The notes: generated by a model from the letters alone, not told the origin. Positions 1,232 to 48,990 are shown, counted from the first letter of the stretch. The stretch is DNA of 64,000 bases from Candidatus Moraniibacteriota bacterium (GCA_049287345.1 JBAQFQ010000017.1:4555-68554), one strand, 5' to 3'. Numbers and translations are program-made.

Positions 1232-2992
1232 ATGAAACAAGAAATTGCTTTTAAAATTTTATGTTCGGGAGAAAATGTTTTTTTAACTGGTTCAGCGGGA
1301 ACGGGTAAAACTTTTGTGATTAATCAATATATTCAATATTTAAGAGAGCGAGGAATTGAACCGGCAATTGTTGCTCCCACCGGGATTGCGGCTTCACACA
1401 TTGGCGGTAAAACCATTCATTCTTTTTTTAGTGTGGGCATTCGAGAATACATCGATGATTACTATCTGAGATGGATGAAACGACAAACGTTTTTAGATAA
1501 ACGGATGAAAAACATGAAAGTCTTGATTATTGATGAGATTTCCATGGTTTCGCCAGAATTATTTTTTTCTATGGATAGAATCCTGCGTGCCTTTAAGGAC
1601 GAAGAAAAGCCTTTTGGCGGCGTGCAGGTAGTTTTATCAGGAGATTTCTTTCAATTACCTCCAGTAGCCAAGACCCCTCGGGAACTAAAGTTTGTCTGGC
1701 AGACCCAGCTGTGGCAAGACGCTAATTTAAAAATCTGTTATTTAAAGGAAAAATTTAGACAAGAAGAAAATAATCAATTGATCAATATTTTAGATGAAAT
1801 TCGCTCCGGAGAAGTTTCGGAAGAATCCATGGAAATTTTTCGAACAAGATATAAAAAAAAGCTAGCCAATGATTTTACTATCACAAAACTTTATACTCAC
1901 AATGTGGATGTAAATAAAATCAATGATGGTGAGCTCGATAAGCTACCTGGGAAAGCTTTTGTCTTTGAGGCGGAAACCAAGGGTTCCAAACAAAATATTG
2001 AAAAGATTTTTAAAAGTTCCTTAGTTTCCCAGGAGGTGAAATTAAAAGTGGGGGCTACGATAATTTTTATTAAAAATAATTACGAAAAAGATTATATCAA
2101 TGGGACATTGGGAAAGATAATCGGCTTTCAAAATAAAACCAACTTTCCTATTGTGGAAGTTTTTGATGGCAGGAAGATTGTTGCTACACCAGAAGAATGG
2201 CTTTGGGAAGATGATAAAGGGAAAATTAAGGCGATCGTTAAGCAATTGCCGATTAAACTAGCTTGGGCGCTTACAATTCATAAGTCTCAAGGGATGACTT
2301 TGGATGCAGCGGAAATTGATTTGAGTAAAACTTTTGAAATCGGGCAAGGTTATGTGGCTCTGTCTCGAATTAAGTCTATAGAGGGTTTACGTTTGATGGG
2401 ACTTAACGATATCGCCCTACAGGTGGATAGGCTAGTATTGGAAAAAGATAGTTTTCTTAAGGAAGAATCTCATTGTAATTTTAGAAAATTTCAAGAAATC
2501 GCGGAGGTTGAATTTATAGAAATATCGGAGCAGTTTATAATTAAAATTGGTGGAGAGAAAATAAGTCAAAAAACAAATTCCAAAAAACCTGCCTACCGGA
2601 CAGACAGGCAAGCTGCAAATAAAAAAGAGGAAGAAAAAAAATCTTTTTCTGGGAAATCTAGCGCTAGGGGGACACTGGAAGTTACCAAAAGAATGGTGCT
2701 GGGCAAGAAAACACTTGAAGAAATTGCTAAAGAAAGAGGTCTCGCAAAAGACACGATTGTTAGTCATTTAATGCAGCTTAAGAAACTTTTACCAGAAACA
2801 GATATTGATTACCTAAAACCTAAAGAACAAATTTTAAGCTTAGTACTAAAAGCTGTTGATAGTATAAAAAAAGATAAAAATCCCGAGAATCTTTCCCAAG
2901 ATGGGCAAGTGAAGTTAAAGCCAATTTTTGAATTCCTAAATAAAAAAATTTCTTATGATGATATAAAGCTGGCGATGTTATTTTATAAATAA
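1232..2992 (+). CDS. PIF1/RecD-family ATP-dependent DNA helicase with C-terminal HTH-like tail
   Basis: Walker A GSAGTGKT, Walker B LIIDEISMV, and the GDFFQLPPV and ALTIHKSQG motifs typical of PIF1/RecD/TraA-like helicases. Confidence 0.8.
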   Translation: MKQEIAFKILCSGENVFLTGSAGTGKTFVINQYIQYLRERGIEPAIVAPTGIAASHIGGKTIHSFFSVGIREYIDDYYLRWMKRQTFLDKRMKNMKVLIIDEISMVSPELFFSMDRILRAFKDEEKPFGGVQVVLSGDFFQLPPVAKTPRELKFVWQTQLWQDANLKICYLKEKFRQEENNQLINILDEIRSGEVSEESMEIFRTRYKKKLANDFTITKLYTHNVDVNKINDGELDKLPGKAFVFEAETKGSKQNIEKIFKSSLVSQEVKLKVGATIIFIKNNYEKDYINGTLGKIIGFQNKTNFPIVEVFDGRKIVATPEEWLWEDDKGKIKAIVKQLPIKLAWALTIHKSQGMTLDAAEIDLSKTFEIGQGYVALSRIKSIEGLRLMGLNDIALQVDRLVLEKDSFLKEESHCNFRKFQEIAEVEFIEISEQFIIKIGGEKISQKTNSKKPAYRTDRQAANKKEEEKKSFSGKSSARGTLEVTKRMVLGKKTLEEIAKERGLAKDTIVSHLMQLKKLLPETDIDYLKPKEQILSLVLKAVDSIKKDKNPENLSQDGQVKLKPIFEFLNKKISYDDIKLAMLFYK

Positions 2993-3136
2993 AAACATAA
3001 GTTTTATTTGGAGCACAGTTTTATTTTTTCTTTAAAGGGTAGTATACTTGAGTTAGTTTAAAATTCTTGAATAATCAAAGGTCGATAAATAAATTTGTAA
3101 GTAAAATAAATATAAAATAATAATTAATATAAAAAA

Positions 3137-4270
3137 ATGAAAAAGATTGTAACAATTATTTTAGTAGCTTTATTTTTTTGGGGAACAGGATTAGCTAACG
3201 CGCAAAAAGAAGAAAAAGTGAAATTAAAGGCTGAAAATATACAAATAAAAACCAAGAAACCTATCTCAAACGAGGAGATAAATAAATTAGAAGAACTTTA
3301 TCCCAAGGGGAAACCGTCAACCTCAGTTGATTCAGTTACTAAATTTATTTTTCCAGCAACCGGCATAAACGCTCCAGCTGTGGTTGGTCAGAAATATGCC
3401 ATTGTAATCGGAATGGCTAATTATCCAGGAATGGATTTTGATTTATGTGTGCCTGAGGCAAGGACAGATTTAAGTATGCCAATTTCGGGGCTATCATTAT
3501 ATTGTAAGGATGATGATTCACATCACATGAAAAATACTTTAATTAGTAGCGACTATGGTTTTAATGCAGAAAATATAAGGTGGATTGCTGATGCGGATGC
3601 AACTTATGACAACATTAAGACTGCTGTAGATGAAATAAAACTTAAACTTACCGAAAACGATGAATTGGTGTTCTTTTTTAGTGGACATGGATTTACTGGT
3701 CAATTTAATGATCCGACAGGCGTTAGCGACTCTGATAAAGATGGAGTGGATGAGGCTATTGGTATTTATGATAGTACCTATCCAACCGATGAGTCTATTT
3801 TAGCTGATCCAACTGTTTTAGATAATTATGATTATACTAAATCCAATGCATTAATTTTTGATGATGAGTTGAGAAATTGGTTTGTAAATTCACCCACCAG
3901 CAGGATAGCTTTTATTTTTGATATTTGTGGCGCAGGGGGTATGAGTGATTTAGCTGGAGAGGGAAGAGTTTTGGCAATGTCTAGTCTTGAGGGTCAAACT
4001 TCCTATACTTATTATTTGGGAGGAACATATACTTCCGCAACTACTATTCAAGAAAGCCAGGGATTGTTTAGTCATTATTTTGTTAATAATGGCATGGAAA
4101 GTGGCTTAGCGGACGGATACAATTTACTAAGCAAAAGAGATGCTAAGAAATATGATGGGAAAGTTTCGATTGAAGAAGCTTTCGGATATGCTTATCCGAT
4201 TATAAAAAGTGTTAAACCACAAACTTCAATCTTAAATGATTCAGATAAATTATTGGATTTCTTGCCATAA
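3137..4270 (+). CDS. Secreted caspase-fold cysteine peptidase (C14/C13/CHAT-like)
   Basis: Signal peptide MKKIVTIILVALFFWGTGLANA. Caspase-like catalytic dyad context FFFSGHG (His) and FIFDICGAGG (Cys); YAIVIGMANY start of the fold. Confidence 0.5.
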   Translation: MKKIVTIILVALFFWGTGLANAQKEEKVKLKAENIQIKTKKPISNEEINKLEELYPKGKPSTSVDSVTKFIFPATGINAPAVVGQKYAIVIGMANYPGMDFDLCVPEARTDLSMPISGLSLYCKDDDSHHMKNTLISSDYGFNAENIRWIADADATYDNIKTAVDEIKLKLTENDELVFFFSGHGFTGQFNDPTGVSDSDKDGVDEAIGIYDSTYPTDESILADPTVLDNYDYTKSNALIFDDELRNWFVNSPTSRIAFIFDICGAGGMSDLAGEGRVLAMSSLEGQTSYTYYLGGTYTSATTIQESQGLFSHYFVNNGMESGLADGYNLLSKRDAKKYDGKVSIEEAFGYAYPIIKSVKPQTSILNDSDKLLDFLP

Positions 4271-10819: not shown

Positions 10820-11675
10820 ATTGTTTTCACCAGCCAAAATTAATTTAACCCTGGAAATTATCAAAAAACTTCCCAATGGTTTTCATGATCTGCGTTCAGT
10901 GATGTATAAAACTGAAAATTTAAAAGATGAAGTGGAAATAACCTTCAACCATCGTCAAACGGGAATTAAAATAATTTGTAATAATAAAAATGTTCCCATT
11001 GATGAAAAAAATATTTGCCACAAAATTGCCCAGAAATTTTTTGTAGTTTCAGGGAAAAGAGTAGGACTAAATATCAAGATAAAGAAACGAATTCCTTTGG
11101 CGGCGGGATTAGGTGGGGGTAGCTCAAATGGAGCTGCGGTTTTGTTGGCGCTGAATAAATATTTCAAAAAACCCTTGAAATATAAGGATTTAGTGACTCT
11201 GGCGGCGGAGGTTGGCAAAGACATTCCCTTTTTTATTTCTAAAAAGAAAGAGGCACTGGTTAAGGGGGCGGGAGAAAAGGTGCAAACTATTAAAAATTTT
11301 CCTAAACTTAATTTATTATTGATAAATCCTCAAGGAGAAATTAGCACCGCCTGGGCTTATTCGCAGTTGGATGAGCGCATGTGGTTTATGGAAAATTCAC
11401 AAAGAAAAAATATTTCACGGAAATTATTAAAATGCGGTAATAGCGCAGAATGTATTGGCCAAAATGTTTATAATGATTTTTCCATTGTTGCTGAGGAATT
11501 ATTTCCAGTGATCAAAGAAATTAAAAATGCCTTAATTGTTTTTGGGGCAGTGGGCGCTGAGATTACCGGCAAGGGTCCAACAGTGGTGGGATTTTTAAAA
11601 ACAAAAAATGACGCCATTGCTATGCGACGGAGGTTAAGAAAAAAGTATCCTCAATTTTTTATCGAAATAGCTTAA
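10806..11675 (+). CDS. ispE: 4-diphosphocytidyl-2-C-methyl-D-erythritol kinase
   Basis: PAKINLTL N-terminus and GHMP-kinase motif PLAAGLGGGSSNGAA; overlaps ispF by 14 nt, suggesting operon coupling. Confidence 0.85.
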   Translation: MKKVKLFSPAKINLTLEIIKKLPNGFHDLRSVMYKTENLKDEVEITFNHRQTGIKIICNNKNVPIDEKNICHKIAQKFFVVSGKRVGLNIKIKKRIPLAAGLGGGSSNGAAVLLALNKYFKKPLKYKDLVTLAAEVGKDIPFFISKKKEALVKGAGEKVQTIKNFPKLNLLLINPQGEISTAWAYSQLDERMWFMENSQRKNISRKLLKCGNSAECIGQNVYNDFSIVAEELFPVIKEIKNALIVFGAVGAEITGKGPTVVGFLKTKNDAIAMRRRLRKKYPQFFIEIA

Positions 11676-11753: not shown

Positions 11754-13007
11754 TTGGAAATAATTAAATCCGACATAAATATGAGTAAAAAAGGAAAACA
11801 CAAGAAACGAGGAAAGATTAAAAAGGATTTTAAAACACAAATAATAAAAACAACCGATAACTTAGAACAGAAAGTTTCTACAATTAAAATAGCCAAAGAA
11901 AAACTCGTAAACAAAGGCTGGGAAGTTAAAAAAAACTTTGTTGCTAGGTTAACTGTTGCCCAAGAATTTTTGAGAAATATGATGATTAAAGAGAGGCTAA
12001 ATTCTTTTTATCAAAAAACAAAAGTAACTTTAAAAAAATGGAATAATATTTTTTGTACAGGTATGGTTTGCGAGACAAACCTCAAGCGTGACATTGGTAT
12101 TGTTTCTGTGGCGATATTGGTGGCTGTAGTATTTTTAGTCATGGGGCAATATACTAGCAGGATAAAGGAGGTCGTAGAGGAAAGGGGCGAAATGCTAGTG
12201 GTGGATGAGAGTTTAGTGGCTGAGTTTGAAGAAAATAGTATAGACAATATTCGATCTATTCAGGACAATATCCAAACCCAAGGGTGGAAGGAATTTAGCA
12301 GCGATTGGTATGGTTTTAAGATAAAATATCCCGAAGATTGGGGGGTGCCAACAATTAGTACTTACAAGAAAGATGCATTAGCGGAATATCGAATTTCTTT
12401 TTTAAGTAAATTGCCAGAAGAAAAAAATATTTTAGGTTTTGAAGTTTCAGTTTATAACATTAATAAAATTAAGGAGCTCTCTAGTACTAGTGAATTTCCT
12501 AAAGTTAAAAATTTAGAGCTAAAGAATTCCGGTAGTTGTAATTCATTAGAGGGGCACGTGTTGGAGACAGGTGATTATCCAGCAGAGGAGATTTATATTT
12601 CCCCATTAGATGATTGTTATTTCCCAGTATTATTTTTTTCAGTAACCAAGGGTCAGTATTTGTATAATATTGCACCCATTGTAAGGGAAATTCAAACAGA
12701 TAATGATTTGATGGTGGAGGTGAGTGATAATTTGCCAGAATTTTTTGCAGCTATTTCTCAATTTGAAAATATTGATATTGTCAGGCCAAAACCCAGAGCG
12801 GTTCAGCCAAGAATAACTGCCCCTAAGCCAGCGTCTCATAAGGTAGTGGGTGGTAGGCTAGTTTGCGAGAAGGATAAAGACAAGCCGGGAAAAAGTGATA
12901 AGGGTAAGGGAAAGCATCTAGATATGGAGTGTTGTTTGGATCCAGATGAATATCCTAACCCACACTGCTATTATGACCCCGCTAAGTATGGTAAATATTT
13001 GAAATAG
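11754..13007 (+). CDS. Hypothetical membrane-anchored protein with basic N-terminus and Cys-containing C-terminus
   Basis: One TM helix; no recognisable domain. The start could be an internal Met. Confidence 0.4.
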   Translation: MEIIKSDINMSKKGKHKKRGKIKKDFKTQIIKTTDNLEQKVSTIKIAKEKLVNKGWEVKKNFVARLTVAQEFLRNMMIKERLNSFYQKTKVTLKKWNNIFCTGMVCETNLKRDIGIVSVAILVAVVFLVMGQYTSRIKEVVEERGEMLVVDESLVAEFEENSIDNIRSIQDNIQTQGWKEFSSDWYGFKIKYPEDWGVPTISTYKKDALAEYRISFLSKLPEEKNILGFEVSVYNINKIKELSSTSEFPKVKNLELKNSGSCNSLEGHVLETGDYPAEEIYISPLDDCYFPVLFFSVTKGQYLYNIAPIVREIQTDNDLMVEVSDNLPEFFAAISQFENIDIVRPKPRAVQPRITAPKPASHKVVGGRLVCEKDKDKPGKSDKGKGKHLDMECCLDPDEYPNPHCYYDPAKYGKYLK

Positions 13008-13085
13008 TTTTTTGAAAAGCACTTGTTTTCTAACGAGTGTTTTTTTGTGGGAAAAATATTTTTGGATATGTTATAATTTAGTTAG

Positions 13086-14483
13086 ATGAAAAATAATAAG
13101 AAAAAAAATATTATAAAAATATTAAAAATTCAAGCCTGGATAACAGGCTTATTTTTAGTGGCATATTTACTGGTTTTAAGTTTTGGAGAAAGTGGAGTTT
13201 TTTTATCTGATTTGAATAACAAAAAAAGAGTGGCTGGCGCTATGGTTGGTGCTATGATAAGAATTTTTGGGCCACCGACTCAGCCAGTGGTAAGTGGCAA
13301 TAGTTTTTGCGATAGCAACAATCTTTCTGTCGTTCGTTTGGACTGGGTAAATGTTGTGGATGCGACGAGCTACGATGTTTTTCGGGAGGGGAATTCGGTT
13401 GCCGATGACATAACGGATAATTTTTTATTAGATGAAAATTTATTAAATAATTTTAGTTATAACTATTATGTAGTGGCTAGTGGACCAGCTGGCGTAGCAA
13501 ATTCGGAAGTTATAAATATTTCAACTCAAGGCTGTGAGGCGCCAATCACTTATTATGTTAAAATTGATGATTTTGAAGGAAGATCAATGACTAGTTGGGC
13601 GGGAACTATAACAACAGAAAATCAGCAACCATTTTTTTCGGGTATCGCTTCGAGAGCTGATGCTTGGGTGGAACTAGAAATCTATGGTGACAATGCTTTT
13701 TATGCTAAAACTTTAACTAATCAAAATGGATTTTGGCAGTGGAGGTTTAATAGTAATCTTTTAGTGGGTAATTATTTGATTTATGTTAAATTATTGGATT
13801 TAGACGGAGAAATAGTCTTGGCTCAAGATAGTCTAAATTTTGAGATATTGGCCAAAGACGAAGATAACTCAGAGAAGAAAAAGAAAAAAGAGCAGATTGA
13901 TTTAACCTTAAGTGACTTTAGCTCAACTAAGCAACCCGTAGTTAAAAAGCCTTTTAATCTAGATATTTCATTGAGTAACGATATTTATATTCGAGGTGTA
14001 AGTGTTGATAGGGAGGCTTATCGGGGTGAGGGTCTTGGAACTAGTATTGATTTTAGTGATGTTGTGGTGGGTGGTTTACCTTTAAAAATTTCCTATACAC
14101 TAATCAACGAAAAAAATGAAATTGCATCTCACTATAATGAAGAATATATTTTGGAGAAAAATTTGAGAGTAGAAAAATATATCCCATTGCCACTCTCTTT
14201 GGAGCTAGGCGAATATCGATTAAGAATAGATGCTAGTATTTCGGGCATTACTGTCAGTGATGAAAGCACGTTTATTTTAAAAGATCGGCCGTTGCTCAAA
14301 ATCGGGGCGACTACTTATTTGACTTATCATGATTTAGTGGGTAATTTGAGTTGGCTATTTATTGGGTCTACCTCATTTTTATCATTTTTCTCGATAGCTG
14401 CTATGCGTGAGCATTATTTATATAAGCGAGCAGTTTTTCATATAACGGAAAAAGTTTTAAAAAGAAGAGGTTTTATTAATTAA
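13086..14483 (+). CDS. Hypothetical surface protein with Fn3-like domain and C-terminal TM anchor
   Basis: N-terminal TM, then VVRLDWVNVVDATSYDVFREG (Fn3-like), then a C-terminal hydrophobic segment. Confidence 0.4.
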   Translation: MKNNKKKNIIKILKIQAWITGLFLVAYLLVLSFGESGVFLSDLNNKKRVAGAMVGAMIRIFGPPTQPVVSGNSFCDSNNLSVVRLDWVNVVDATSYDVFREGNSVADDITDNFLLDENLLNNFSYNYYVVASGPAGVANSEVINISTQGCEAPITYYVKIDDFEGRSMTSWAGTITTENQQPFFSGIASRADAWVELEIYGDNAFYAKTLTNQNGFWQWRFNSNLLVGNYLIYVKLLDLDGEIVLAQDSLNFEILAKDEDNSEKKKKKEQIDLTLSDFSSTKQPVVKKPFNLDISLSNDIYIRGVSVDREAYRGEGLGTSIDFSDVVVGGLPLKISYTLINEKNEIASHYNEEYILEKNLRVEKYIPLPLSLELGEYRLRIDASISGITVSDESTFILKDRPLLKIGATTYLTYHDLVGNLSWLFIGSTSFLSFFSIAAMREHYLYKRAVFHITEKVLKRRGFIN

Positions 14484-25749: not shown

Positions 25750-25860
25750 ATATAGAACACTACACTATCTAAATAATTGGGGGAGTTGCCTGCCACCAAT
25801 TAACTTGGGGGTCCTTAAAGTATCTGTAAGTATATATGATAAGCCTGGACAAATCAACGC

Positions 25861-25888
25861 TTGACAATTTATGCAATTATGTGATAAT
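25861..25888 (+). promoter_or_regulatory. Sigma70-like promoter TTGACA-N16-GATAAT
   Basis: Upstream of the CDS at 26015. Confidence 0.4.
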
Positions 25889-26014
25889 CTTTCTTAATTG
25901 ATAAAGAGCTCATAATTTAAGGTGATTATGCAGTTGTTGTTAATTGTTTAATATTGTTTGGGGTAATTTTTAGTAAATATAATTTGAGTTGCTAAATTTT
26001 ATTGTTTTTATTTT

Positions 26015-27079
26015 ATGAAAAAAACTGTAAGTAAAAAAACTTCTAATAATTTATTTTTTGAAGAAGTAGTTAAGTCAATCACTAAGGAAATAAATGAGCG
26101 AGCGATTGTAATGATTGCTGAGCGTTTTGGTTTTAACAAAAAGGGAACTAAAACTTTAGGAGAGATCGGCGATACTTATGGAATTACTCGAGAGCGAGTG
26201 CGTCAGATAATAAGAGAGGCTATTTCCAAAGTAAAGCACCGATCCAAGAATGACCAATTATTTAAAGCGGCAGAGAGCAAGATTAGTTTTGTGGTAGAAA
26301 AAAAACATGGTATAATTTCAAAGAAAGAATTAATAGAATTGATAATCGAGCATGAAAAAGAGGAAAATTTTATTAATTTTATTTTGCATTGTTCAGATAA
26401 CTTTAATGTTATAGAAGCTGAGTTAGAAATGGAGGAAGCTGTCGCTTTAAGTAAGTTTGATATAGTTCATTGGCGAGAGGTTAAGGAAAAAGCGATGACA
26501 GTTTTAAATAAACATAATAAGGCTTTGCATTCAAGTTTGTTTTTTGCTGAACTTTTAAAATTTCACCCAGAGTTAGAAGAACAGAAATTTTTAAATTTTC
26601 TAAACGTTTCTAAGGAGATTAAGAAAAGTGTTTTTGATAAGTGGGGTATTTTTCACTGGACAGAGATTAATCCTAAAGGTGTGCGAGAAAAAGCTTACTT
26701 GATAATTAAAGAAAATAAGGAACCTTTGCACTTTAGAGAGGTGGCTCAATTAATCGATAAACATAGTTTAAGTAAGAAAAAAACACATCCTCAGACAGTG
26801 CACAACGAGTTAATTAAAGATGAGAAATTCGTTTTAGTAGGCCGTGGTACTTATGCTCTTAGTGAATGGGGTTATCAAAAAGGAACTGTGCGAGATGTGA
26901 TTGAGGAAATTTTAAAAAATAGTGCAGTGGCTTTAACCCAAGAAGAAATTATAGAAAAGGTCTTGAAAGTTAGAAATGTTAAGAAAACTACAGTAATTAT
27001 AAATTTAAATAAATTTTTCAAAAAAATGGATGGACGTAAATATTCCTTGAAAAATAAAAATAGCAAAAAGACTGTTTAG
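26015..27079 (+). CDS. DNA-binding protein with N-terminal sigma-70 region-4-like HTH and C-terminal HARE-HTH-like domain
   Basis: TLGEIGDTYGITRERVRQIIREAISKV resembles sigma70 region 4.2. The C-terminal PLHFREVAQLI...THPQTVHNELIKDEKFVLVGRGTYALSEW matches the HARE-HTH signature. Confidence 0.45.
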   Translation: MKKTVSKKTSNNLFFEEVVKSITKEINERAIVMIAERFGFNKKGTKTLGEIGDTYGITRERVRQIIREAISKVKHRSKNDQLFKAAESKISFVVEKKHGIISKKELIELIIEHEKEENFINFILHCSDNFNVIEAELEMEEAVALSKFDIVHWREVKEKAMTVLNKHNKALHSSLFFAELLKFHPELEEQKFLNFLNVSKEIKKSVFDKWGIFHWTEINPKGVREKAYLIIKENKEPLHFREVAQLIDKHSLSKKKTHPQTVHNELIKDEKFVLVGRGTYALSEWGYQKGTVRDVIEEILKNSAVALTQEEIIEKVLKVRNVKKTTVIINLNKFFKKMDGRKYSLKNKNSKKTV

Positions 27080-27135
27080 ATATCACGAGATCTTTAGGTA
27101 TCAATAAAAAGGTTAGTTAAAATAAATAAAAATAA

Positions 27136-28416
27136 ATGGATATTTTAGGAGAAATAATTCCCAATAACTTCTTCCATAATCTAGGGCAAATGCTTTCGAT
27201 TTCATGGTTTTTGGTTTTTCCTCCTTTGCTGTATTGGTTGTTTAAAATTTTGTGGTTGGATCATGCTATCGGGGGTTATTGGTCAAAGGTGCAGTGGGTT
27301 CTTTTGGAAGTGGTTCCACCTAGCAATATTGAAGAAACTCCGCAGGCCATGGAGATGATTTATGATGGATTGATGGGAATAACAAAGGGAATTAATGCGA
27401 TTGAAGAATTTGTGAATGGTGAAACCCGGATGTATTTGAGTTTGGAGCTAGTGAGTAAAGAGGGTCAGATTCATTTTTATGTTCGAGTCGCTAAGCAATT
27501 TAAAAATTTAGTGGAATCCAATTTTCATGCTCAGTATCCCACTTGTGAAGTGAAGGAGGTTCCTGATTATGTAACTGATATTCCCAAGGTTATTCCTAAT
27601 AAAAAATGGAATGTTTGGGGAACAGACTTTATTTTAAAAAAACCAGATCCATATCCGATCAAAACTTATAAATGGTTTGAGGAAAGTGTTACTGGAAAAT
27701 CGCTAGATCCTTTGGCGACAATCGTGGAGAGTTTAAGTAAAATTGGCCCTAAACAATATTTCTGGTTTCAGTTAATCATTAGTCCTTATGGAGATGGTGA
27801 ATATGAGACTGGAAAAGGTATCGTGGACAAATTAGCTGGAAAAGCTAAGCCAGCATCTAAAGGTTTGTTTGAATCTATTTTTGGGGATATTAAGGATGTT
27901 TTTTTGGCAGTTTTTAAAGGGATGGCTGGTAATCCAATCGAGTTTGCGACAGCGAAAGAAAAAGCTTTGGATGCTCCATTAGAATTTAAACTTACTCCAG
28001 GTGAACGGGATGTCTTAAAGGCCATTGAAGAGGGGATGGGTAAGGGATCATTTAAAACTAAAATGCGTATGATTTATGCGGGACGCAGAGAAGCTTTTAA
28101 TAAAGTAGTAATAGGTTCTTTTGCTGGTGGTTTCAATCAGTTTACGGATGCTAATTTGAATAGTTTTATTATGGATAATGATAGTAAAACTTTTGCCCTA
28201 CATCTTTTTGTGGACGCAAGAACTCGTTATCGTCAAAGAAAAATTTTAAGAAGATATCGAGCAAGAAATCGTGATGGGAAAAATTTCTTTTTAAACACAG
28301 CTGAATTGGCAACAATATTTCATTTGCCAAATATGGCGGTGATTTCTTCAGCAGTGCATAAGATAGAAAACAAAACTGGGGCAGCACCAGCTAATTTACC
28401 AATAGGTATAGAATAA
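27136..28416 (+). CDS. Hypothetical membrane protein (2 N-terminal TM + ~350-aa soluble domain)
   Basis: Hydrophobic N-terminus; no motif recognised; 6 nt upstream of the ATPase gene. Confidence 0.4.
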   Translation: MDILGEIIPNNFFHNLGQMLSISWFLVFPPLLYWLFKILWLDHAIGGYWSKVQWVLLEVVPPSNIEETPQAMEMIYDGLMGITKGINAIEEFVNGETRMYLSLELVSKEGQIHFYVRVAKQFKNLVESNFHAQYPTCEVKEVPDYVTDIPKVIPNKKWNVWGTDFILKKPDPYPIKTYKWFEESVTGKSLDPLATIVESLSKIGPKQYFWFQLIISPYGDGEYETGKGIVDKLAGKAKPASKGLFESIFGDIKDVFLAVFKGMAGNPIEFATAKEKALDAPLEFKLTPGERDVLKAIEEGMGKGSFKTKMRMIYAGRREAFNKVVIGSFAGGFNQFTDANLNSFIMDNDSKTFALHLFVDARTRYRQRKILRRYRARNRDGKNFFLNTAELATIFHLPNMAVISSAVHKIENKTGAAPANLPIGIE

Positions 28417-28422
28417 ATAATT

Positions 28423-30546
28423 ATGCAAGACATTACTTTTTTTGCCAAAACCAATTTTCGAAACCAAAATATAAAATTTGGTATCAAGACCGCTGATCGA
28501 CAGCGACATATGTATGTGATTGGAAAAACTGGTATGGGTAAAACCACCCTGCTGGAAAATATTGTAATGCAAGATATCGCCAATGGTCACGGTGTGGCCT
28601 ATATTGATCCGCATGGAGATACCGCAGAAAAGTTAATTAAGGCTATTCCCGCCAACAGAATTAATGATGTAGTTTACTTTAATCCAGCGGATACGGAGTT
28701 TCCTATCGCTTTTAATATCTTGGAATCCGTCAGTGAAGATAAGAAGCATTTAGTAGCTTCTGGTATGATGGGGGTATTTAAAAAGATTTGGCCAGATGTC
28801 TGGAGTGCGAGAATGGAATATATCTTAAGTAATGCCCTGTTGGCTCTTTTGGATTATCCTGGTTCAACAATGATGGGAGTCAATCGGATGATGAGTGATA
28901 AAAAATATCGCCAAAGAGTTTATGAAAAAATAAAGGATCCGGTGGTAAAGGGTTTCTGGGTAGATGAATTTGAAACATGGGAAGATCGTTTTCGAAAAGA
29001 AGCCGTGGCGGCAATTCAAAATAAGGTGGGACAATTCCTTTCTTCTTTCTTGATTAGAAATATTGTGGGGCAAACAAAATCCACAATTAACATGAGGGAA
29101 ATAATGGATAATAACAAAATTTTAATTGTTAACTTATCCAAGGGAAGAATCGGAGAAGATGCGATGCGACTTTTGGGTGGGATGATTGTTACTAAAATTC
29201 AATTAGCAGCGATGGAGAGAGTGGATATGCCAGAAGAAGAAAGAAAGAATTTTTATTTAACTGTGGATGAGTTTCAAAATTTCGTAACAGAATCGTTTGC
29301 TAATATTTTGTCAGAGGCTAGAAAATATCGTTTAAACTTGTTAGTGGCGCACCAATATATTAATCAGCTCGTGACTGACAGTAGTGCAGTTGTTAAAGAT
29401 GCTATTTTTGGTAATGTGGGAACTATTATTTCTTTTCGAGTTGGAGCCGAGGACGCGGAATTTCTGGAAAAGGAATTTGAGCCAGTTTTTATGATGAATG
29501 ATATCGTTAACTTGCCTAAGTTTAGCATCTATCTAAAATTAATGATTGATGGAATTGCGGGTAATGCTTTTTCCGCTACAGCTTTACCACCCATTGATTT
29601 AGAGGGCACAATGGAAAACGCCGAAAAAGTTATCCGAATTTCCAGAGAGCGCTATGCTAAAGACAGAAAAGAAATTGAGGAGAAAATTGCTAGATGGACA
29701 GGTATGCTGGTTAATACGGACACCAGCAGAAATATTTTAGAAAATAGAAATCAACAACCAGTACGCAGCGCTTACGTTAAGCCTGTAGTTAGAAAGGATT
29801 TTGTTAATAAAAATGAGGCGGTGGAGAAAAAAAATCAAATAGATAATACTCCCGTTGTAAAAGAAATTAAGATTGATGAGTCGATTAATTTGACTCAAGA
29901 TAAAATTATCAATGTTGAGCCTATTAAAGCAGATACGCAAACTGTTTTAAAAAATGAGGTAGTGACTGCTATTGAAAAAGATAATATTCAATCCAATATA
30001 GCTCCAATTAAAATTGAAGAGCAAATAAAAGTTAATGATGAGACGGCGGTTAAGGAGGAATCTTTAAATGTGCAGGAAGAAATCTTGCTTGCAAAGAAAG
30101 ATGAGACTGTTGAAAAGCCAGGAGTTAAAAATAAAACACTACATGATTCAGAATGTGATACTTGTGGGGTAGCTATCCAAATACCATTTAAGCCAGATGG
30201 AGAGCGTCCTACTTTTTGTAAGGATTGTTTAAAGGATTATCAGCGAGCAATTGCTAGAATACAAAATGAGGAAAGTGAAAATAAGAAAAGAATTTCCCAA
30301 GAGGGTGAAATCTTTAATCCCGCTAAAGCTAATGGTATCGAAAGAGATAATTACCGACCAAATTTGCAGGGAAAAATAGAGACCGAACAGCGGGTTTATC
30401 AGCCACAAGAGAAGCCATTAAGTTTATCCCAGACACGTTTTATGGCTCCAAAAAAAATAAAAAACATGGATGCGGGTAGAGAATTGTCTAAATTAAGGGA
30501 GATAATTCAAAAAAATAATGAAGCCAGACATAAAGATGAAAAATAA
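28423..30546 (+). CDS. VirD4/TrwB-like (T4CP-family) P-loop ATPase lacking TM segments, with KE-rich linker and C-terminal CxxC...CxxC zinc ribbon
   Basis: Walker A VIGKTGMGKTT, downstream YIDPHGD (cf. the T4CP DPxGD motif), Walker B FYLTVDEFQNF, RKYRLNLLVAHQ. C-terminus CDTCGVAIQIPFKPDGERPTFCKDC. Confidence 0.5.
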   Translation: MQDITFFAKTNFRNQNIKFGIKTADRQRHMYVIGKTGMGKTTLLENIVMQDIANGHGVAYIDPHGDTAEKLIKAIPANRINDVVYFNPADTEFPIAFNILESVSEDKKHLVASGMMGVFKKIWPDVWSARMEYILSNALLALLDYPGSTMMGVNRMMSDKKYRQRVYEKIKDPVVKGFWVDEFETWEDRFRKEAVAAIQNKVGQFLSSFLIRNIVGQTKSTINMREIMDNNKILIVNLSKGRIGEDAMRLLGGMIVTKIQLAAMERVDMPEEERKNFYLTVDEFQNFVTESFANILSEARKYRLNLLVAHQYINQLVTDSSAVVKDAIFGNVGTIISFRVGAEDAEFLEKEFEPVFMMNDIVNLPKFSIYLKLMIDGIAGNAFSATALPPIDLEGTMENAEKVIRISRERYAKDRKEIEEKIARWTGMLVNTDTSRNILENRNQQPVRSAYVKPVVRKDFVNKNEAVEKKNQIDNTPVVKEIKIDESINLTQDKIINVEPIKADTQTVLKNEVVTAIEKDNIQSNIAPIKIEEQIKVNDETAVKEESLNVQEEILLAKKDETVEKPGVKNKTLHDSECDTCGVAIQIPFKPDGERPTFCKDCLKDYQRAIARIQNEESENKKRISQEGEIFNPAKANGIERDNYRPNLQGKIETEQRVYQPQEKPLSLSQTRFMAPKKIKNMDAGRELSKLREIIQKNNEARHKDEK

Positions 30547-33642: not shown

Positions 33643-35685
33643 TTATTTTTTGTAAAAAATAGAGAGACTTGGCCCTTCATATATCTTGGAAAATTGAGGG
33701 TTGGATTCAAATTGGGGTCCATCAACTGAGGTATCCACTGCAATATAATGAGTTTTGGTGGCGAGATAACAGGATTGAGCTCTCTCGGAGGATGGCTCAC
33801 TAATCATCCAGAGTGTGCACATTTCTCGGGGCTTAGTGGGATCTTCGTATCTTTTGAAATATCCGCGCGAGAGAGGGTAATTGTAGTCCTTAAGGAAAAA
33901 TAATTTTATCCAAGAATCAGCGGTAATGTAATTATGATCCTTGAGAAAGTTTTCCTCATTGGCTTCTGGACGAAGAGCAATCTGCTCGGCTAAAAATTTA
34001 GAAAGATGAAAAGTTTGCAGAGCTCTTTGACTTTTTTGTCCATCAGAAAGTGACCCAGAGTTGTCGTAGTAGCCAGCAAAGATAATAGTAGTAAATATTG
34101 CGATAAACCCAAGGCGAGTTATATTTTTAGAGATGTTGAAATTATTTTCTATTTTTTGCAGAGAGACAATTAGGTAAATTAACCCTAAAGAGGAGAGAAT
34201 AATAAAGGGAAAATTAGCATAATTAGATACTCTTTCTGAGGGAAGATTTATATGTAGATAGTGTGGGAAAACGGTCATAAAAAATAAGCAAAGTGCCCAG
34301 CCAATAAGGATAGTGGCAGGTAGTAATTTTCTATAATCATCTTTTATCTCCCAAGATTTAATGACGCCAACAATCATCAAAACAAAGATACCAATAATCC
34401 CCAGGGCTAATCTTAATTCTCCTACAGCGTATTTAAATTGCTCTAGGGTGAGTCCTGCTCTAGTGGACTTAGACGGCGCCCCTACAGCAGTGGATGTAGC
34501 TGAGGGGGATAGATAACTAGGTGTATAAACTAGAAATAAAAATAATATAGCCCCGATAAAAAATAATATTATTTGGGGACGAATAAATATCGACATTAAG
34601 TCTTTAAATACTTTTTGGTAAGTTTGCCAGAGAGTGGGAATTTTATTGGAGGAGGCATTGAATATTTTTTGTAAAATAAGTAATCCATTAAAAGTTAGGA
34701 AAATAAAAGCTAAAATAAAGAGAAAGATGAATCCACTTAAGTGATGAGTATAAAATAAACCAGCACTTAAAAATAAGCCCAAAAATAAAAACCAGGAATT
34801 TTTTTCTTTGAGGGCTCGATAAAATAGGTAGAGGCAAAGTGGAATTAGTAAGTTACCAATCAAATTGCCAATAACTCCGCCACTTACAAATTTGGCCTGG
34901 GGGGAAGTAATTGCATAGATGGGACCAATTATTAACAAGCTGAGAATAGCTAGATTAGTAGAATTGATTATTTTTTCGTAAAAAGTATCGGCAAAAATTC
35001 TTAAAGTCAAAATGAATATTGCTAATATGCTAAAGATATTGATAGCAAATAAAATAAGGGCTGGGAAATAGGAATTAAATGGAATTTTGCTCAGGAGATT
35101 AATGCCGGAAAAAATTAAATGTTCACCAATGATAAAGTCAGCGATGGAGTTGGACTCAAGGCGGTATTCATTATCTTGTTTTACGATTTCGATTTTCTGG
35201 TAATCGGGTATTTTTCCAGTTTGGGCAGTTAGTTTTGACCAATACATATGGTGGCCCAAGTCAGTAGCAGTAGGGAAAATAGCGTCTTTTAAATAGGCAG
35301 TTTTAATGAAAATCGTTAGAAATAAGATCAGGACAATCAAAATAGTCTGACTCCGGGTAAAGATTATTTTAGGTAGAGATTTTTTTGGTTGAAGGGGGTT
35401 TTTGCGGACTAAAAATTTATAAAGAGCATACAAGCTGATTATAAATAGGGAAAATAAAATAAGGATTAATTTTTGATTTATAAGAAGGCCTAATTTTCCA
35501 GAAAGAATTATCAGAAAATCAAAGACAATAAGACTGAGGGCAAAAGACAGCACAGCTATTTCAATTGGCAAAAAGAGATGGTTTGTTTTTTTTCTAAAAA
35601 TAGCAAGTAATAAAAAATATCCTGGTAGAATCAGTAAGAAAATAAAACTTAAGAAAAAAAGCAGTAGTTCAATAAAAATAGACAT
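33643..35685 (-). CDS. Polytopic membrane protein, putative GT-C-type glycosyltransferase (ArnT/PMT-like)
   Basis: More than 12 TM helices plus a C-terminal soluble domain; operon context with a GT2 polyprenyl-phosphate sugar synthase and a GT4. Confidence 0.35.
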   Translation of the reverse strand: MSIFIELLLFFLSFIFLLILPGYFLLLAIFRKKTNHLFLPIEIAVLSFALSLIVFDFLIILSGKLGLLINQKLILILFSLFIISLYALYKFLVRKNPLQPKKSLPKIIFTRSQTILIVLILFLTIFIKTAYLKDAIFPTATDLGHHMYWSKLTAQTGKIPDYQKIEIVKQDNEYRLESNSIADFIIGEHLIFSGINLLSKIPFNSYFPALILFAINIFSILAIFILTLRIFADTFYEKIINSTNLAILSLLIIGPIYAITSPQAKFVSGGVIGNLIGNLLIPLCLYLFYRALKEKNSWFLFLGLFLSAGLFYTHHLSGFIFLFILAFIFLTFNGLLILQKIFNASSNKIPTLWQTYQKVFKDLMSIFIRPQIILFFIGAILFLFLVYTPSYLSPSATSTAVGAPSKSTRAGLTLEQFKYAVGELRLALGIIGIFVLMIVGVIKSWEIKDDYRKLLPATILIGWALCLFFMTVFPHYLHINLPSERVSNYANFPFIILSSLGLIYLIVSLQKIENNFNISKNITRLGFIAIFTTIIFAGYYDNSGSLSDGQKSQRALQTFHLSKFLAEQIALRPEANEENFLKDHNYITADSWIKLFFLKDYNYPLSRGYFKRYEDPTKPREMCTLWMISEPSSERAQSCYLATKTHYIAVDTSVDGPQFESNPQFSKIYEGPSLSIFYKK

Positions 35686-47682: not shown

Positions 47683-48990
47683 TTATAATTTTAATTGAGC
47701 GGTGGTAGTTAGGACTTTCCAATTGTTTAGAGTCAGAGCTTTTTCTGCAGAGGTCATTTTTTGCCAACGATAAATAGCCGCCACACTAATCATAGTAGCA
47801 TTATCAGTTGAATAATTAGAAACTTGAGACTGAAATTGCACGTGAGGAAGATTTTTTTTAATAGCTAAATTCATTTTTTCTCGAAGATTATCATTGGCAG
47901 AAACTCCTCCAGCAATGAAAATTGTCTGAGAATTGTGTAAAATAGCAGCTTGAATAGTTTTTTTAACTAAAACATCGGTAGCTGCCTCTTGAAATTCATA
48001 AGCCATTTCTTGGACAAAACTTTCTGGAAGCGGGTTTTTATCCTCGAGATTGTTTTCTTTTCTGTAATTTTTAACTTTGTATAAAACAGCTGTTTTTAAG
48101 CCAGAGAAGGAAAAATTAAAATCTTTGCTGTGTAACATCGGGCGAGGCAGATTATGTTTTTTGTCATTTGAAACTGGACGCCCGTTAGCCGTGACTGACG
48201 AATTGAAATTAGCCGCTTGGGTGGCTATAGCTGGTCCTCCTGGGTAACCTAAATCTAAAATACGAGCAACTTTATCAAAAGCTTCTCCCACGGCGTCATC
48301 TTGGGTTTCTCCAATTATTTCGTATTTAAAATGATCAGACATTAAAATCAATTGAGTGTGTCCACCAGAAACAACTAGAGACAAAATGGGAAATTTTATG
48401 TTAGCAGATTTAGCTGGTAGTTTAGTTAGCTTTTTAGAATCTGTATTTTTGGATGTTTCTTTATCATTAGAAATTAAATCATCTGGCATTGATTTGATAT
48501 TTGATATTGGTAATTTGGAATTTACGCTAATTTTATCGCAGATAAAATTAGCATAAATATGTCCCTCAATGTGATGAATTCCAAGGAGGGGCTTGTTATA
48601 AAGATAAGCAAGAGTTTTAGCAAAATTAGTGCCAATAAGCAGAGCAGGAATAAGGCCTGGACCATGAGTTACAGCAATTAAATCAATATCTTCTATTTGC
48701 TTATTTGCTTCTTGGAGAGCGGATTTTAAAACGGGGATGATATTTTTCAAGTGTTCTCTAGCGGCTAAATTAGGCACTACTCCTCCCCAAACGGCGTGCA
48801 GAGCTATTTGTGAAGAAATTATATTGGATAATACTAAAATTTCACCATTTTTTTCTTCTAAAATTGCGATAGCGGTTTCATCGCAAGAGGTCTCGATTCC
48901 TAAAACTAGCATAGTATTCATCATTAATATTACTTGTTTATCATAGTATTTGGGGAGAAAATAAGCAAGGTGAAGGTTATTAATATTCAA
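47683..48990 (-). CDS. tsaD: tRNA N6-adenosine threonylcarbamoyltransferase TsaD (Kae1/TsaD family) with ~45-aa low-complexity insertion
   Basis: MLVLGIETSCDET start (probable true start ~48912) and HIEGH metal-binding motif. The insertion SNIKSMPDDLISNDKETSKNTDSKKLTKLPAKSAN lies before the LVVSGGHTQL region. Confidence 0.85.
   Translation of the reverse strand: MNINNLHLAYFLPKYYDKQVILMMNTMLVLGIETSCDETAIAILEEKNGEILVLSNIISSQIALHAVWGGVVPNLAAREHLKNIIPVLKSALQEANKQIEDIDLIAVTHGPGLIPALLIGTNFAKTLAYLYNKPLLGIHHIEGHIYANFICDKISVNSKLPISNIKSMPDDLISNDKETSKNTDSKKLTKLPAKSANIKFPILSLVVSGGHTQLILMSDHFKYEIIGETQDDAVGEAFDKVARILDLGYPGGPAIATQAANFNSSVTANGRPVSNDKKHNLPRPMLHSKDFNFSFSGLKTAVLYKVKNYRKENNLEDKNPLPESFVQEMAYEFQEAATDVLVKKTIQAAILHNSQTIFIAGGVSANDNLREKMNLAIKKNLPHVQFQSQVSNYSTDNATMISVAAIYRWQKMTSAEKALTLNNWKVLTTTAQLKL

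Follow-up and report, generated by a model that had tools for sequence, protein, structure and literature searches.

A conserved three-gene operon of Candidatus Moraniibacteriota encodes a candidate two-piece, membrane-docked coupling-protein-type motor and a sigma region 4/HARE-HTH partner

Why does a bacterial chromosome keep an ATPase of the conjugative coupling-protein type with no conjugation genes beside it? The question is raised by a 64,000-nucleotide (nt) stretch of DNA from Candidatus Moraniibacteriota bacterium (GCA_049287345.1 JBAQFQ010000017.1:4555-68554), hereafter the window, which belongs to an AT-rich Patescibacteria contig with 33-37% GC. The three open reading frames (ORFs) in question, here named A, B and C, lie on the same strand, exactly at the coordinates given in a preliminary description of the sequence:

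26015-27079, + strand: gene A, 354 amino acids (aa), with a sigma-70 region 4, an unassigned middle region, a HARE-HTH domain and a conserved C-terminal region
27136-28416, + strand: gene B, 426 aa, DUF8128 (PF26449), putative membrane-anchored partner of the ATPase
28423-30546, + strand: gene C, 707 aa, ATPase of the type IV coupling protein (T4CP) type, followed by a disordered linker, a zinc ribbon and a tail

The intergenic gaps measure 56 nt between A and B and, as previously reported, 6 nt between B and C. We give an even chance to the reading that the genes constitute a vertically inherited operon for a two-piece, membrane-docked motor of the T4CP type and a partner that binds nucleic acid or RNA polymerase, the motor being derived from a coupling protein of monoderm conjugation and now part of the core genome.

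Judged from its sequence, C is a catalytically intact P-loop ATPase of the TrwB/TraD type that lacks a membrane anchor. The following elements were located in its conserved part:

28423-29712, + strand: residues 1-430, nucleotide-binding domain of the TrwB/TraD/VirD4 type, very conserved
28522-28545, + strand: Walker A motif GKTGMGKT, residues 34-41, invariant in the homologue alignment
28735-29067, + strand: residues ~105-215, predicted all-helical insertion between the two Walker motifs, where T4CPs have their all-alpha domain
29251-29283, + strand: Walker B motif FYLTVDEFQNF, residues 277-287, invariant in the homologue alignment
29347-29355, + strand: AHQ, residues 309-311, invariant in the homologue alignment

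A protein identical to C has been deposited from a Candidatus Moraniibacteriota metagenome-assembled genome. In Pfam, C matches TrwB_AAD_bind over residues 24-341 (E 3.8e-11, 43 bits against a cut-off of 20.5), TraG-D_C (26.2 against 22) and, also above cut-off, DUF87; NCBIfam adds TraD (E 1e-15) and CD1115 VirD4-like matches, with every equivalog-level score far under its cut-off. Among PDB sequences, even a profile search retrieved only TrwB and DotL. The motifs GKTGMGKT, YIDPHGD, VDEF and AHQ, recognized earlier as T4CP-like, are indeed present and are invariant in 14 C homologues. A hydropathy scan found no hydrophobic segment in C, in agreement with the previous statement that it has no transmembrane helices, and the only anchor sits in the separate protein B. 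Membership of the HerA or KAP families was ruled out, coupling-protein models being the best hidden Markov model (HMM) matches: the DUF87/HerA match (E 1.3e-5) is weaker than those to TrwB_AAD_bind and TraD, and Pfam and NCBIfam scans gave no KAP match. The VirD4/TrwB-like assignment of the preliminary description therefore survives this check, both by HMMs and by PDB matches. VirB4 was ruled out likewise, with TrwB_AAD_bind, TraD and VirD4-like models scoring best, no match to AAA_10 or CagE, and a match to TIGR00929 confined to the P-loop (E 3.8e-4, 18.8 bits against a cut-off of 643). In elements that carry both kinds of ATPase, namely phage G (gp155/gp156) and an Embleya plasmid, tblastn with C matches the T4CP-like gene only.

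C thus shares with the T4CPs (TrwB of R388, TraD of F and SXT, VirD4 and DotL) the P-loop domain, Walker A and B, the HQ motif and the TraG-D_C region. An all-alpha insertion in the nucleotide-binding domain is a further possible likeness. The AlphaFold2 model has seven helices at residues 105-215, with predicted local distance difference test (pLDDT) values of only 56-72, and the TrwB_AAD_bind match runs through this region; because the model of C is too poor, the assignment rests on the Pfam alignment and low-confidence secondary structure. Unlike the T4CPs, C has no N-terminal transmembrane domain, is not linked to a relaxase or a type IV secretion system (T4SS), is chromosomal, core and slowly evolving, and carries a zinc ribbon and tail motifs that are not known from this family.

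The anchor that C lacks would be supplied by B, in which three parts are distinguished:

27181-27264, + strand: residues ~16-43, sole hydrophobic segment, with a conserved mid-segment proline (hydropathy of B and 19 homologues)
27295-28317, + strand: residues 54-394, alpha/beta domain, modelled with the fold of the VirB4/TrwK N-terminal domain
28291-28401, + strand: residues 386-422, conserved motif L.T.ELAT.FH.P...V....-(x)-APANLP, from homologue alignments

B had been described as a protein with two transmembrane helices, which is not borne out: a single hydrophobic stretch is followed by a soluble alpha/beta domain of ~370 aa. The stretch probably forms one transmembrane anchor, with a short hairpin possible, and the structure model of B has one long helix at residues 2-51. 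PF26449 is precomputed on 120 of 120 listed B homologues, DUF8128 is named in the locus tables, and the family comprises 2,850 representative clusters at 50% identity; nothing on DUF8128 was found in the literature. The model is of moderate quality (pLDDT 68, predicted template modelling score 0.67). A Foldseek search of it against the PDB returned TrwK chains as all of the top 12 matches, and EccE of ESX systems as a weaker second match. According to this model, the soluble domain of B folds like the N-terminal domain of VirB4. B differs from VirB4/TrwK in the lack of detectable sequence similarity to VirB4 and in its partner, a T4CP-type rather than a VirB4-type ATPase. It also resembles, by description, TrsD, the stand-alone VirB4-NTD-like protein of pGO1-type T4SSs that is abundant in Patescibacteria, since B likewise stands alone beside an ATPase of the FtsK/HerA type; TrsD homologues, however, adjoin virB4 (PMC12102498), whereas B adjoins C.

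By profile comparison, B and C are the N- and C-terminal halves, in that order, of single-chain proteins of plasmids and phages. In the PHROG family phrog_5156 (824 positions), B matches positions 53-358 and C positions 396-805 (E 4.5e-58). In its member gp156 of Bacillus phage G (825 aa), the first 322 residues align with the B profile (hhalign probability 96%, E 2.7e-9) and residues 381-780 with C (28% identity, E 4e-46); gp156 is also the best structural match of B among viral models (E 2e-16). C-like ATPases were found on 440 plasmid records, from Streptomyces, Bacillus, Pseudomonas, haloarchaea and Sulfolobus. On the B. subtilis plasmid NZ_OX419568, a 913-aa 'DUF87' protein is encoded beside TcpE, a VirB4-like ATPase and a replication-relaxation relaxase. 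The first 311 residues of this protein match the B profile (probability 74%, E 2.9e-5) and share the motif ..EEL....FP at their end. An 812-aa T4CP of an Embleya plasmid, composed of an N-terminal transmembrane helix, a further domain and the ATPase, lies in the gene cluster PrgI / ATPase / T4CP / relaxase / NlpC-P60, and its N-terminal domain matches the B profile marginally (E 0.009). The B profile gave no match on plasmids by tblastn, nor any with the N-termini of Bradyrhizobium and Haladaptatus T4CPs. The C-terminal motif of B stands just ahead of the ATPase domain in the fused homologues, and aligns with LNIEELSGIVRFPSRSV of the B. subtilis plasmid protein and with gp156.

The B. subtilis and Embleya proteins thus share with B and C a DUF8128-like N-terminal domain, the ..EEL....F/HxP motif and a C-like ATPase behind it. 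In contrast to B and C, they are single polypeptides without zinc ribbon or sigma region 4/HARE-HTH partner, and are encoded beside a replication-relaxation relaxase, a VirB4-like ATPase, PrgI/TcpE and a cell-wall hydrolase. Phage G gp156 and its SPO1-like and CP-51-like relatives in phrog_5156 have both halves, by sequence profile and by structure; unlike B and C, gp156 is fused, phage-borne and without N-terminal membrane anchor, and adjoins the VirB4-like gp155, with no A-like gene noted. The phage and plasmid fusions imply that B and C represent the split form of a monoderm coupling-protein type with a VirB4-NTD-like front half. As a separate observation, a VirB4-like ATPase adjoins the fused B-C-like protein in phage G (gp155-gp156, L081:1196-5338) and also in SPO1 (gp27.4), CP-51 and JL, which could be a phage-borne pair for DNA delivery or DNA handling.

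The third protein, A, combines two DNA- or polymerase-related modules:

26060-26269, + strand: residues 16-85, complete region 4 (4.1 and 4.2) of primary-sigma type
26687-26869, + strand: residues 225-285, HARE-HTH, a winged helix like that of RNA polymerase delta

Both had been proposed in the preliminary description, and both now have Pfam matches above cut-off: Sigma70_r4 over residues 36-75 (E 8e-10) and HARE-HTH (PF05066) over residues 225-285 (E 5.5e-10). In a profile search against the PDB, residues 16-85 retrieved region 4 of HrdB, SigA and RpoD (E 1e-14). The recognition helix ITRERVRQI is invariant among A homologues (T58-Q64 invariant); in sigma-70 region 4.2, these recognition-helix residues read the -35 hexamer. 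The HARE-HTH domain is the most conserved part of A, with a nearly invariant block THPQTVHNELIK..FVLVGRGTYAL, and the architecture of 350 aa is common to more than 6,000 homologues. A is like the primary sigma factors in its full region 4 with the conserved recognition helix, and unlike them in lacking regions 1-3: region 4 is the only sigma region detected and full-length sigma models score far below their cut-offs, so that A cannot be an initiation factor. It is like the delta subunit (RpoE of Bacillota) in that the HARE-HTH domain matches the delta N-terminal domain model. Unlike delta, a subunit of ~170 aa, A has another architecture without acidic tail, and its match to TIGR04567 (E 1e-8, 35.1 bits) stays below the cut-off of 42. 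Without sigma regions 1-3 and without the acidic tail, A is therefore a member of neither family; as far as these matches tell, it is a complete primary-sigma region 4 with intact -35-reading residues plus a delta-like HARE-HTH. Nothing was found in the literature on HARE-HTH in Patescibacteria or on its pairing with a sigma region 4.

The C-terminal part of C is composed as follows:

29713-30138, + strand: residues 431-572, linker, hypervariable in length and sequence, predicted disordered (pLDDT <35)
30136-30237, + strand: residues 572-605, predicted treble-clef zinc ribbon CxxC-x17-CxxC, cysteines 578/581/599/602
30409-30465, + strand: residues 663-681, conserved short linear motif EKPLSLSQTRFMAPKKIKN of the tail, with a terminal helix behind it at residues 687-706

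The ribbon matches PF23477 (zf_Tbcl_2) over residues 572-604 (E 4e-10, 39.6 bits against a cut-off of 27) and TIGR04272 CxxC-x17-CxxC (E 1e-10, 41.2 bits against 36). Its cysteines are invariant in aligned C homologues, and the domain of this family binds zinc in small proteins of Methanosarcina (PMC12704099). The ribbon was thus correctly noted before, but it is not the end of C, as a tail of 105 aa with the conserved motif EKPLSLSQTRFMAPKKIK lies beyond it. The linker, previously put at ~250 aa and called KE-rich, measures 143 aa (residues 430-572) and is only about 25% K+E. In the tail motif, Q670, P676 and K677 are invariant in aligned homologues. Among full-length C proteins of diverged lineages, 25 of 45 carry the ribbon; their tails, with or without it, show the clade-specific motifs ..SL..AL..GP..F.G[RK]K, VD...L[RK]..LE.SL and a terminal PGQxIxF. 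At one locus (L088:9503-11315), the ATPase ORF stops after 466 aa, and ribbon and tail are found in a separate ORF in an overlapping frame (10917-11315); either the hypervariable linker is frameshifted here, or the ribbon/tail module is naturally separate.

The conservation of the module was followed in 80 Moranbacteria genome loci, found with C, and in a diverged set of 80 metagenome loci, reached through B representatives ~30% identical to the B of the window. In Moranbacteria, B and C are adjacent in all 80 loci and the order A-B-C is kept in 77 even though the genes on either side vary, the three loci without A being truncated contigs. Two further loci, reached through A homologues (~45% identical), have the order A-DUF8128-TrwB_AAD_bind. 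In the diverged set, C comes immediately after B in 59 of the 70 loci eligible for the comparison, and A lies ahead of B in 45 of 58; the median identity to the window is 33% for both A and B, and 64% for the C ATPase. The refuting condition named in the preliminary description, a lack of co-conservation of the three genes in related genomes, is therefore contradicted by both sets. Within Moranbacteria, the C ATPase is 75-90% identical and tracks DnaB of the same loci. Unbiased clustering of all ORFs in 82 related loci yielded no fourth conserved neighbour and no linked relaxase or VirB4 family; none was noticed in the 80 diverged loci, where the screen covered A, B, C, SecD/F and, by Pfam, selected neighbours. 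The position beside dnaB/recR, which had been noted earlier, is incidental: these genes flank the trio in only 12-13 of the 80 Moranbacteria loci (groES in only 6), and a functional link to them was rejected. At three loci (L136, L141 and L143), A-B is followed by yceG (mltG) and mnmA and C is not nearby; the linkage of A to B is thus at least as tight as that of B to C. At another metagenome locus, a reverse transcriptase (RVT_1) ORF lies directly upstream of B (L163:1248-2354).

The conservation extends to the predicted promoter of the operon:

25860-25890, + strand: predicted operon promoter, CTTGACA-N17-TATGTGATAATCT, with a consensus -35 and an extended -10

The scan upstream of A gave 11/12 matches plus TG, and both elements (CTTGACA-N17-TGTGATAAT) are invariant across 10 diverged dnaB/A intergenic regions while the remaining spacer varies. 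Terminator-like sites between the trio genes occur only at chance level in our scan. The 5' leader has no Rfam match, and Rfam over the window recovers two tRNAs only. Just 5' of the conserved -35 (25849-25859), the sequence ACAAATCAAYG is kept among closer relatives and may be an UP-like element or an operator.

A module whose ATPase has relatives on plasmids and phages, and which has no VirB or relaxase genes nearby, might be what is left, no longer functional, of an integrated conjugative element or prophage; the preliminary description had offered a domesticated remnant of a conjugative element as one alternative. We regard decay of this kind as extremely improbable, and already contradicted: no locus examined has a broken reading frame or a changed catalytic motif, the trio is intact in hundreds of species, C is under strong purifying selection and as conserved as DnaB, and the promoter is conserved. 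Around the trio in the window there is no integrase, flanking tRNA (the window tRNAs are 10 kb off) or compositional anomaly, its base composition matching the surroundings. The fused relatives, the kept order A-B-C and the DnaB-like conservation therefore point to a domesticated core function rather than to a decaying remnant. The term orphan applied to the ATPase does hold. By phmmer, the window has no relaxase or VirB4 gene near the trio, no C paralogue and no VirB4-like or PrgI-like ORF, a limited test, since the HMM scans did not cover all ORFs.

Resemblances to defence systems raise the question of whether the trio is an anti-phage or anti-plasmid module related to mad8 of the MADS system or to HerA-type defence ATPases. 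C matches the PADLOC model of mad8 over residues 26-370 (E 8.8e-18), with weak HerA matches in addition; the sigma-like defence protein MzaA matches region 4 of A; and HARE-HTH domains occur in restriction enzymes according to the Pfam description. The mad8 and MzaA matches, however, are limited to the generic ATPase core, soluble and TraD/HerA-like in both cases, and to sigma region 4. Unlike in MADS, other mad genes were not found when the trio proteins were scanned with PADLOC, where the mad3 match was at chance level (E 0.047), and the MADS preprint gives no function for mad8. Moreover, defence systems are patchy, fast-evolving and situated in variable islands, whereas this module is syntenic in 80/80 related species sampled and beyond, conserved like DnaB and indistinct in base composition, with no nuclease, methylase or other effector gene accompanying it. 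A role in defence is accordingly very unlikely.

What, then, does the motor move? C is likely one of the T4CP homologues already published for Patescibacteria, as far as its annotation indicates. Of 3,035 Patescibacteria genomes, 2,918 have such homologues, which are possibly exapted and lie near virB4 in only 148 of 5,713 cases (PMC12102498). The T4SS of Patescibacteria is regarded as one that does not transfer DNA, there being neither relaxase nor coupling protein in its cluster (PMC10633639); in Southlakia, the T4SS cluster is essential and likewise without a coupling protein (PMC10633639).

These facts bear on an alternative in which B and C form a receptor or motor for protein substrates, either T4SS effectors or Sec-associated export, with A as regulator of the operon or a general RNA polymerase factor. 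T4CPs such as VirD4 and DotL recruit protein effectors too, and DotL is one of the only two PDB matches of C. A also stays beside B where C is elsewhere, as a promoter-proximal regulator would, and a T4SS that does not move DNA agrees with protein traffic. Among the diverged loci (L090-L169), 24 of the 41 that were eligible have secD-secF immediately before the module in the same orientation, 17 as secD-secF-A-B-C and 7 as secD-secF-B-C (e.g. L090:1501-4099, L109:2906-5886, L138:2602-5593 and L159:2839-5837). This arrangement may hint at an association with protein export or may simply reflect synteny within a clade; none of the 80 Moranbacteria loci has it, so that clade-specific synteny is conceivable. 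On the other side, the functionally nearest relatives of the fused form adjoin relaxases and thus belong to DNA-processing modules, the partner A appears from its domains to bind DNA or RNA polymerase, and the C tails are basic, of low complexity and often ribboned, which is more typical of nucleic-acid binding. Taken together, we consider a protein-translocating motor doubtful, though worth keeping in view. An unusual architecture was seen in the SecD proteins of three of these loci (~690-700 aa; L109:2906-4993, L138:2602-4668 and L159:2839-4935), which have PpiC-type Rotamase domains between SecD_1st and the P1 head.

The breadth of the module also invites the idea of a housekeeping DNA pump that works independently of the T4SS, serving DNA uptake with ComEC and type IV pili or FtsK-like chromosome clearing and segregation. 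This agrees with the DNA-uptake idea of the preliminary description. It fits a module that is near-universal and slowly evolving (see also PMC12102498), the presence of T4CP homologues in genomes without VirB4, and the FtsK/HerA-superfamily fold of C. It is opposed by the loci themselves, in which competence or division genes are linked to the module in 0 of 162 cases, and by the negligible FtsK_SpoIIIE score of C (E 0.14). ftsK is reportedly mentioned in papers on TM7x, and at least some Patescibacteria appear to have FtsK, which we count against a division role for C. We therefore hold such a pump to be unlikely. ComEC is dispensable for viability in Southlakia (PMC12857230), an observation that is neutral with respect to B and C.

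In the reading that we prefer, the most likely role of the trio is that of a coupling motor docked at the membrane and acting on nucleic acid or nucleoprotein, with substrate and channel proposed by analogy. The N-terminal helix of B would insert into the membrane, and its VirB4-NTD-like domain, together with the ELAT.FH.P motif, would hold a ring of C beneath it, as the N-terminal domain of VirB4 does with its own ATPase ring. C would hydrolyse ATP, engage its substrate, most likely DNA or nucleoprotein, and feed it to a membrane channel, for which the Patescibacteria T4SS is the obvious candidate where present. The disordered tail of C, with its ribbon and short linear motifs, could recruit partners in the way that the tail of TraD binds TraM. 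A would select DNA or bridge to RNA polymerase, and would at least regulate the operon.

Several observations weigh against this interpretation. All steps beyond the docking of C by B are drawn by analogy. No relaxase or T4SS gene is linked to the module in the 162 loci examined, and since T4CP homologues are commoner (96% of genomes) than VirB4 (80%; PMC12102498), the T4SS cannot be the only partner. In Southlakia, the T4CP homologue, whose membership in the family of C is an assumption, is dispensable while the T4SS is essential (PMC12102498). The unity of the module is not absolute, as C is apart from B in 11 of 70 diverged loci and A is not adjacent in 13 of 58; nor is the ribbon, which is missing from 20 of the 45 full-length diverged C proteins. 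Where secD-secF precede the module, a protein-export link fits as well as chance synteny. On the structural side, the AlphaFold model of C, built with 14 close homologues, is unusable (pLDDT 44.7), that of B is only moderate, and B shows no similarity to VirB4 at the sequence level, whether its profile is compared with PDB sequences, with gp155 or with the 643-aa Embleya protein.

A bolder version dispenses with the T4SS. In it, A would tether promoter DNA or RNA polymerase to the membrane-docked motor in a machine particular to Patescibacteria that exports or imports nucleic acid, or couples nucleoid to membrane, in connection with the epibiotic lifestyle, and the tail of C would act as a switchboard. 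We think this improbable.

Elsewhere in the window, a caspase-like Peptidase_C14 protein (3137-4270) comes after a PIF1-like helicase with a C-terminal HTH_40 domain (1232-2992), a pairing (1232-4270) that recalls modules of defence or abortive infection. No Pfam match at E 1e-5 was obtained for two neighbouring ORFs of 417 and 465 aa (11754-14483) or for a polytopic membrane protein of 680 aa (33643-35685). A TsaD homologue of 435 aa (47683-48990) has ~195 extra N-terminal residues and matches in two stretches; it may be a fusion with another t6A component.

Part of what is described here is already known: the ATPase family and DUF8128 are catalogued, and orphan T4CP homologues of Patescibacteria have been reported. 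We found no account of the split architecture, of a VirB4-NTD fold in DUF8128, of the fused plasmid and phage counterparts, of the sigma region 4/HARE-HTH partner or of the tail motifs, all of which appear to be undescribed. The fused counterparts suggest that a VirB4-like N-terminal module is common to at least one class of monoderm coupling proteins, a point relevant to the divergence of VirB4 and the T4CPs. The tiny genomes of Patescibacteria nearly all keep a coupling-protein homologue outside the essential T4SS cluster (PMC12102498, PMC10633639), and the present analysis supplies this homologue with testable partners, DUF8128 and the sigma region 4/HARE-HTH protein, and with an evolutionary origin. 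If the motor indeed moves DNA without a relaxase, it would represent a new mode of T4CP use.

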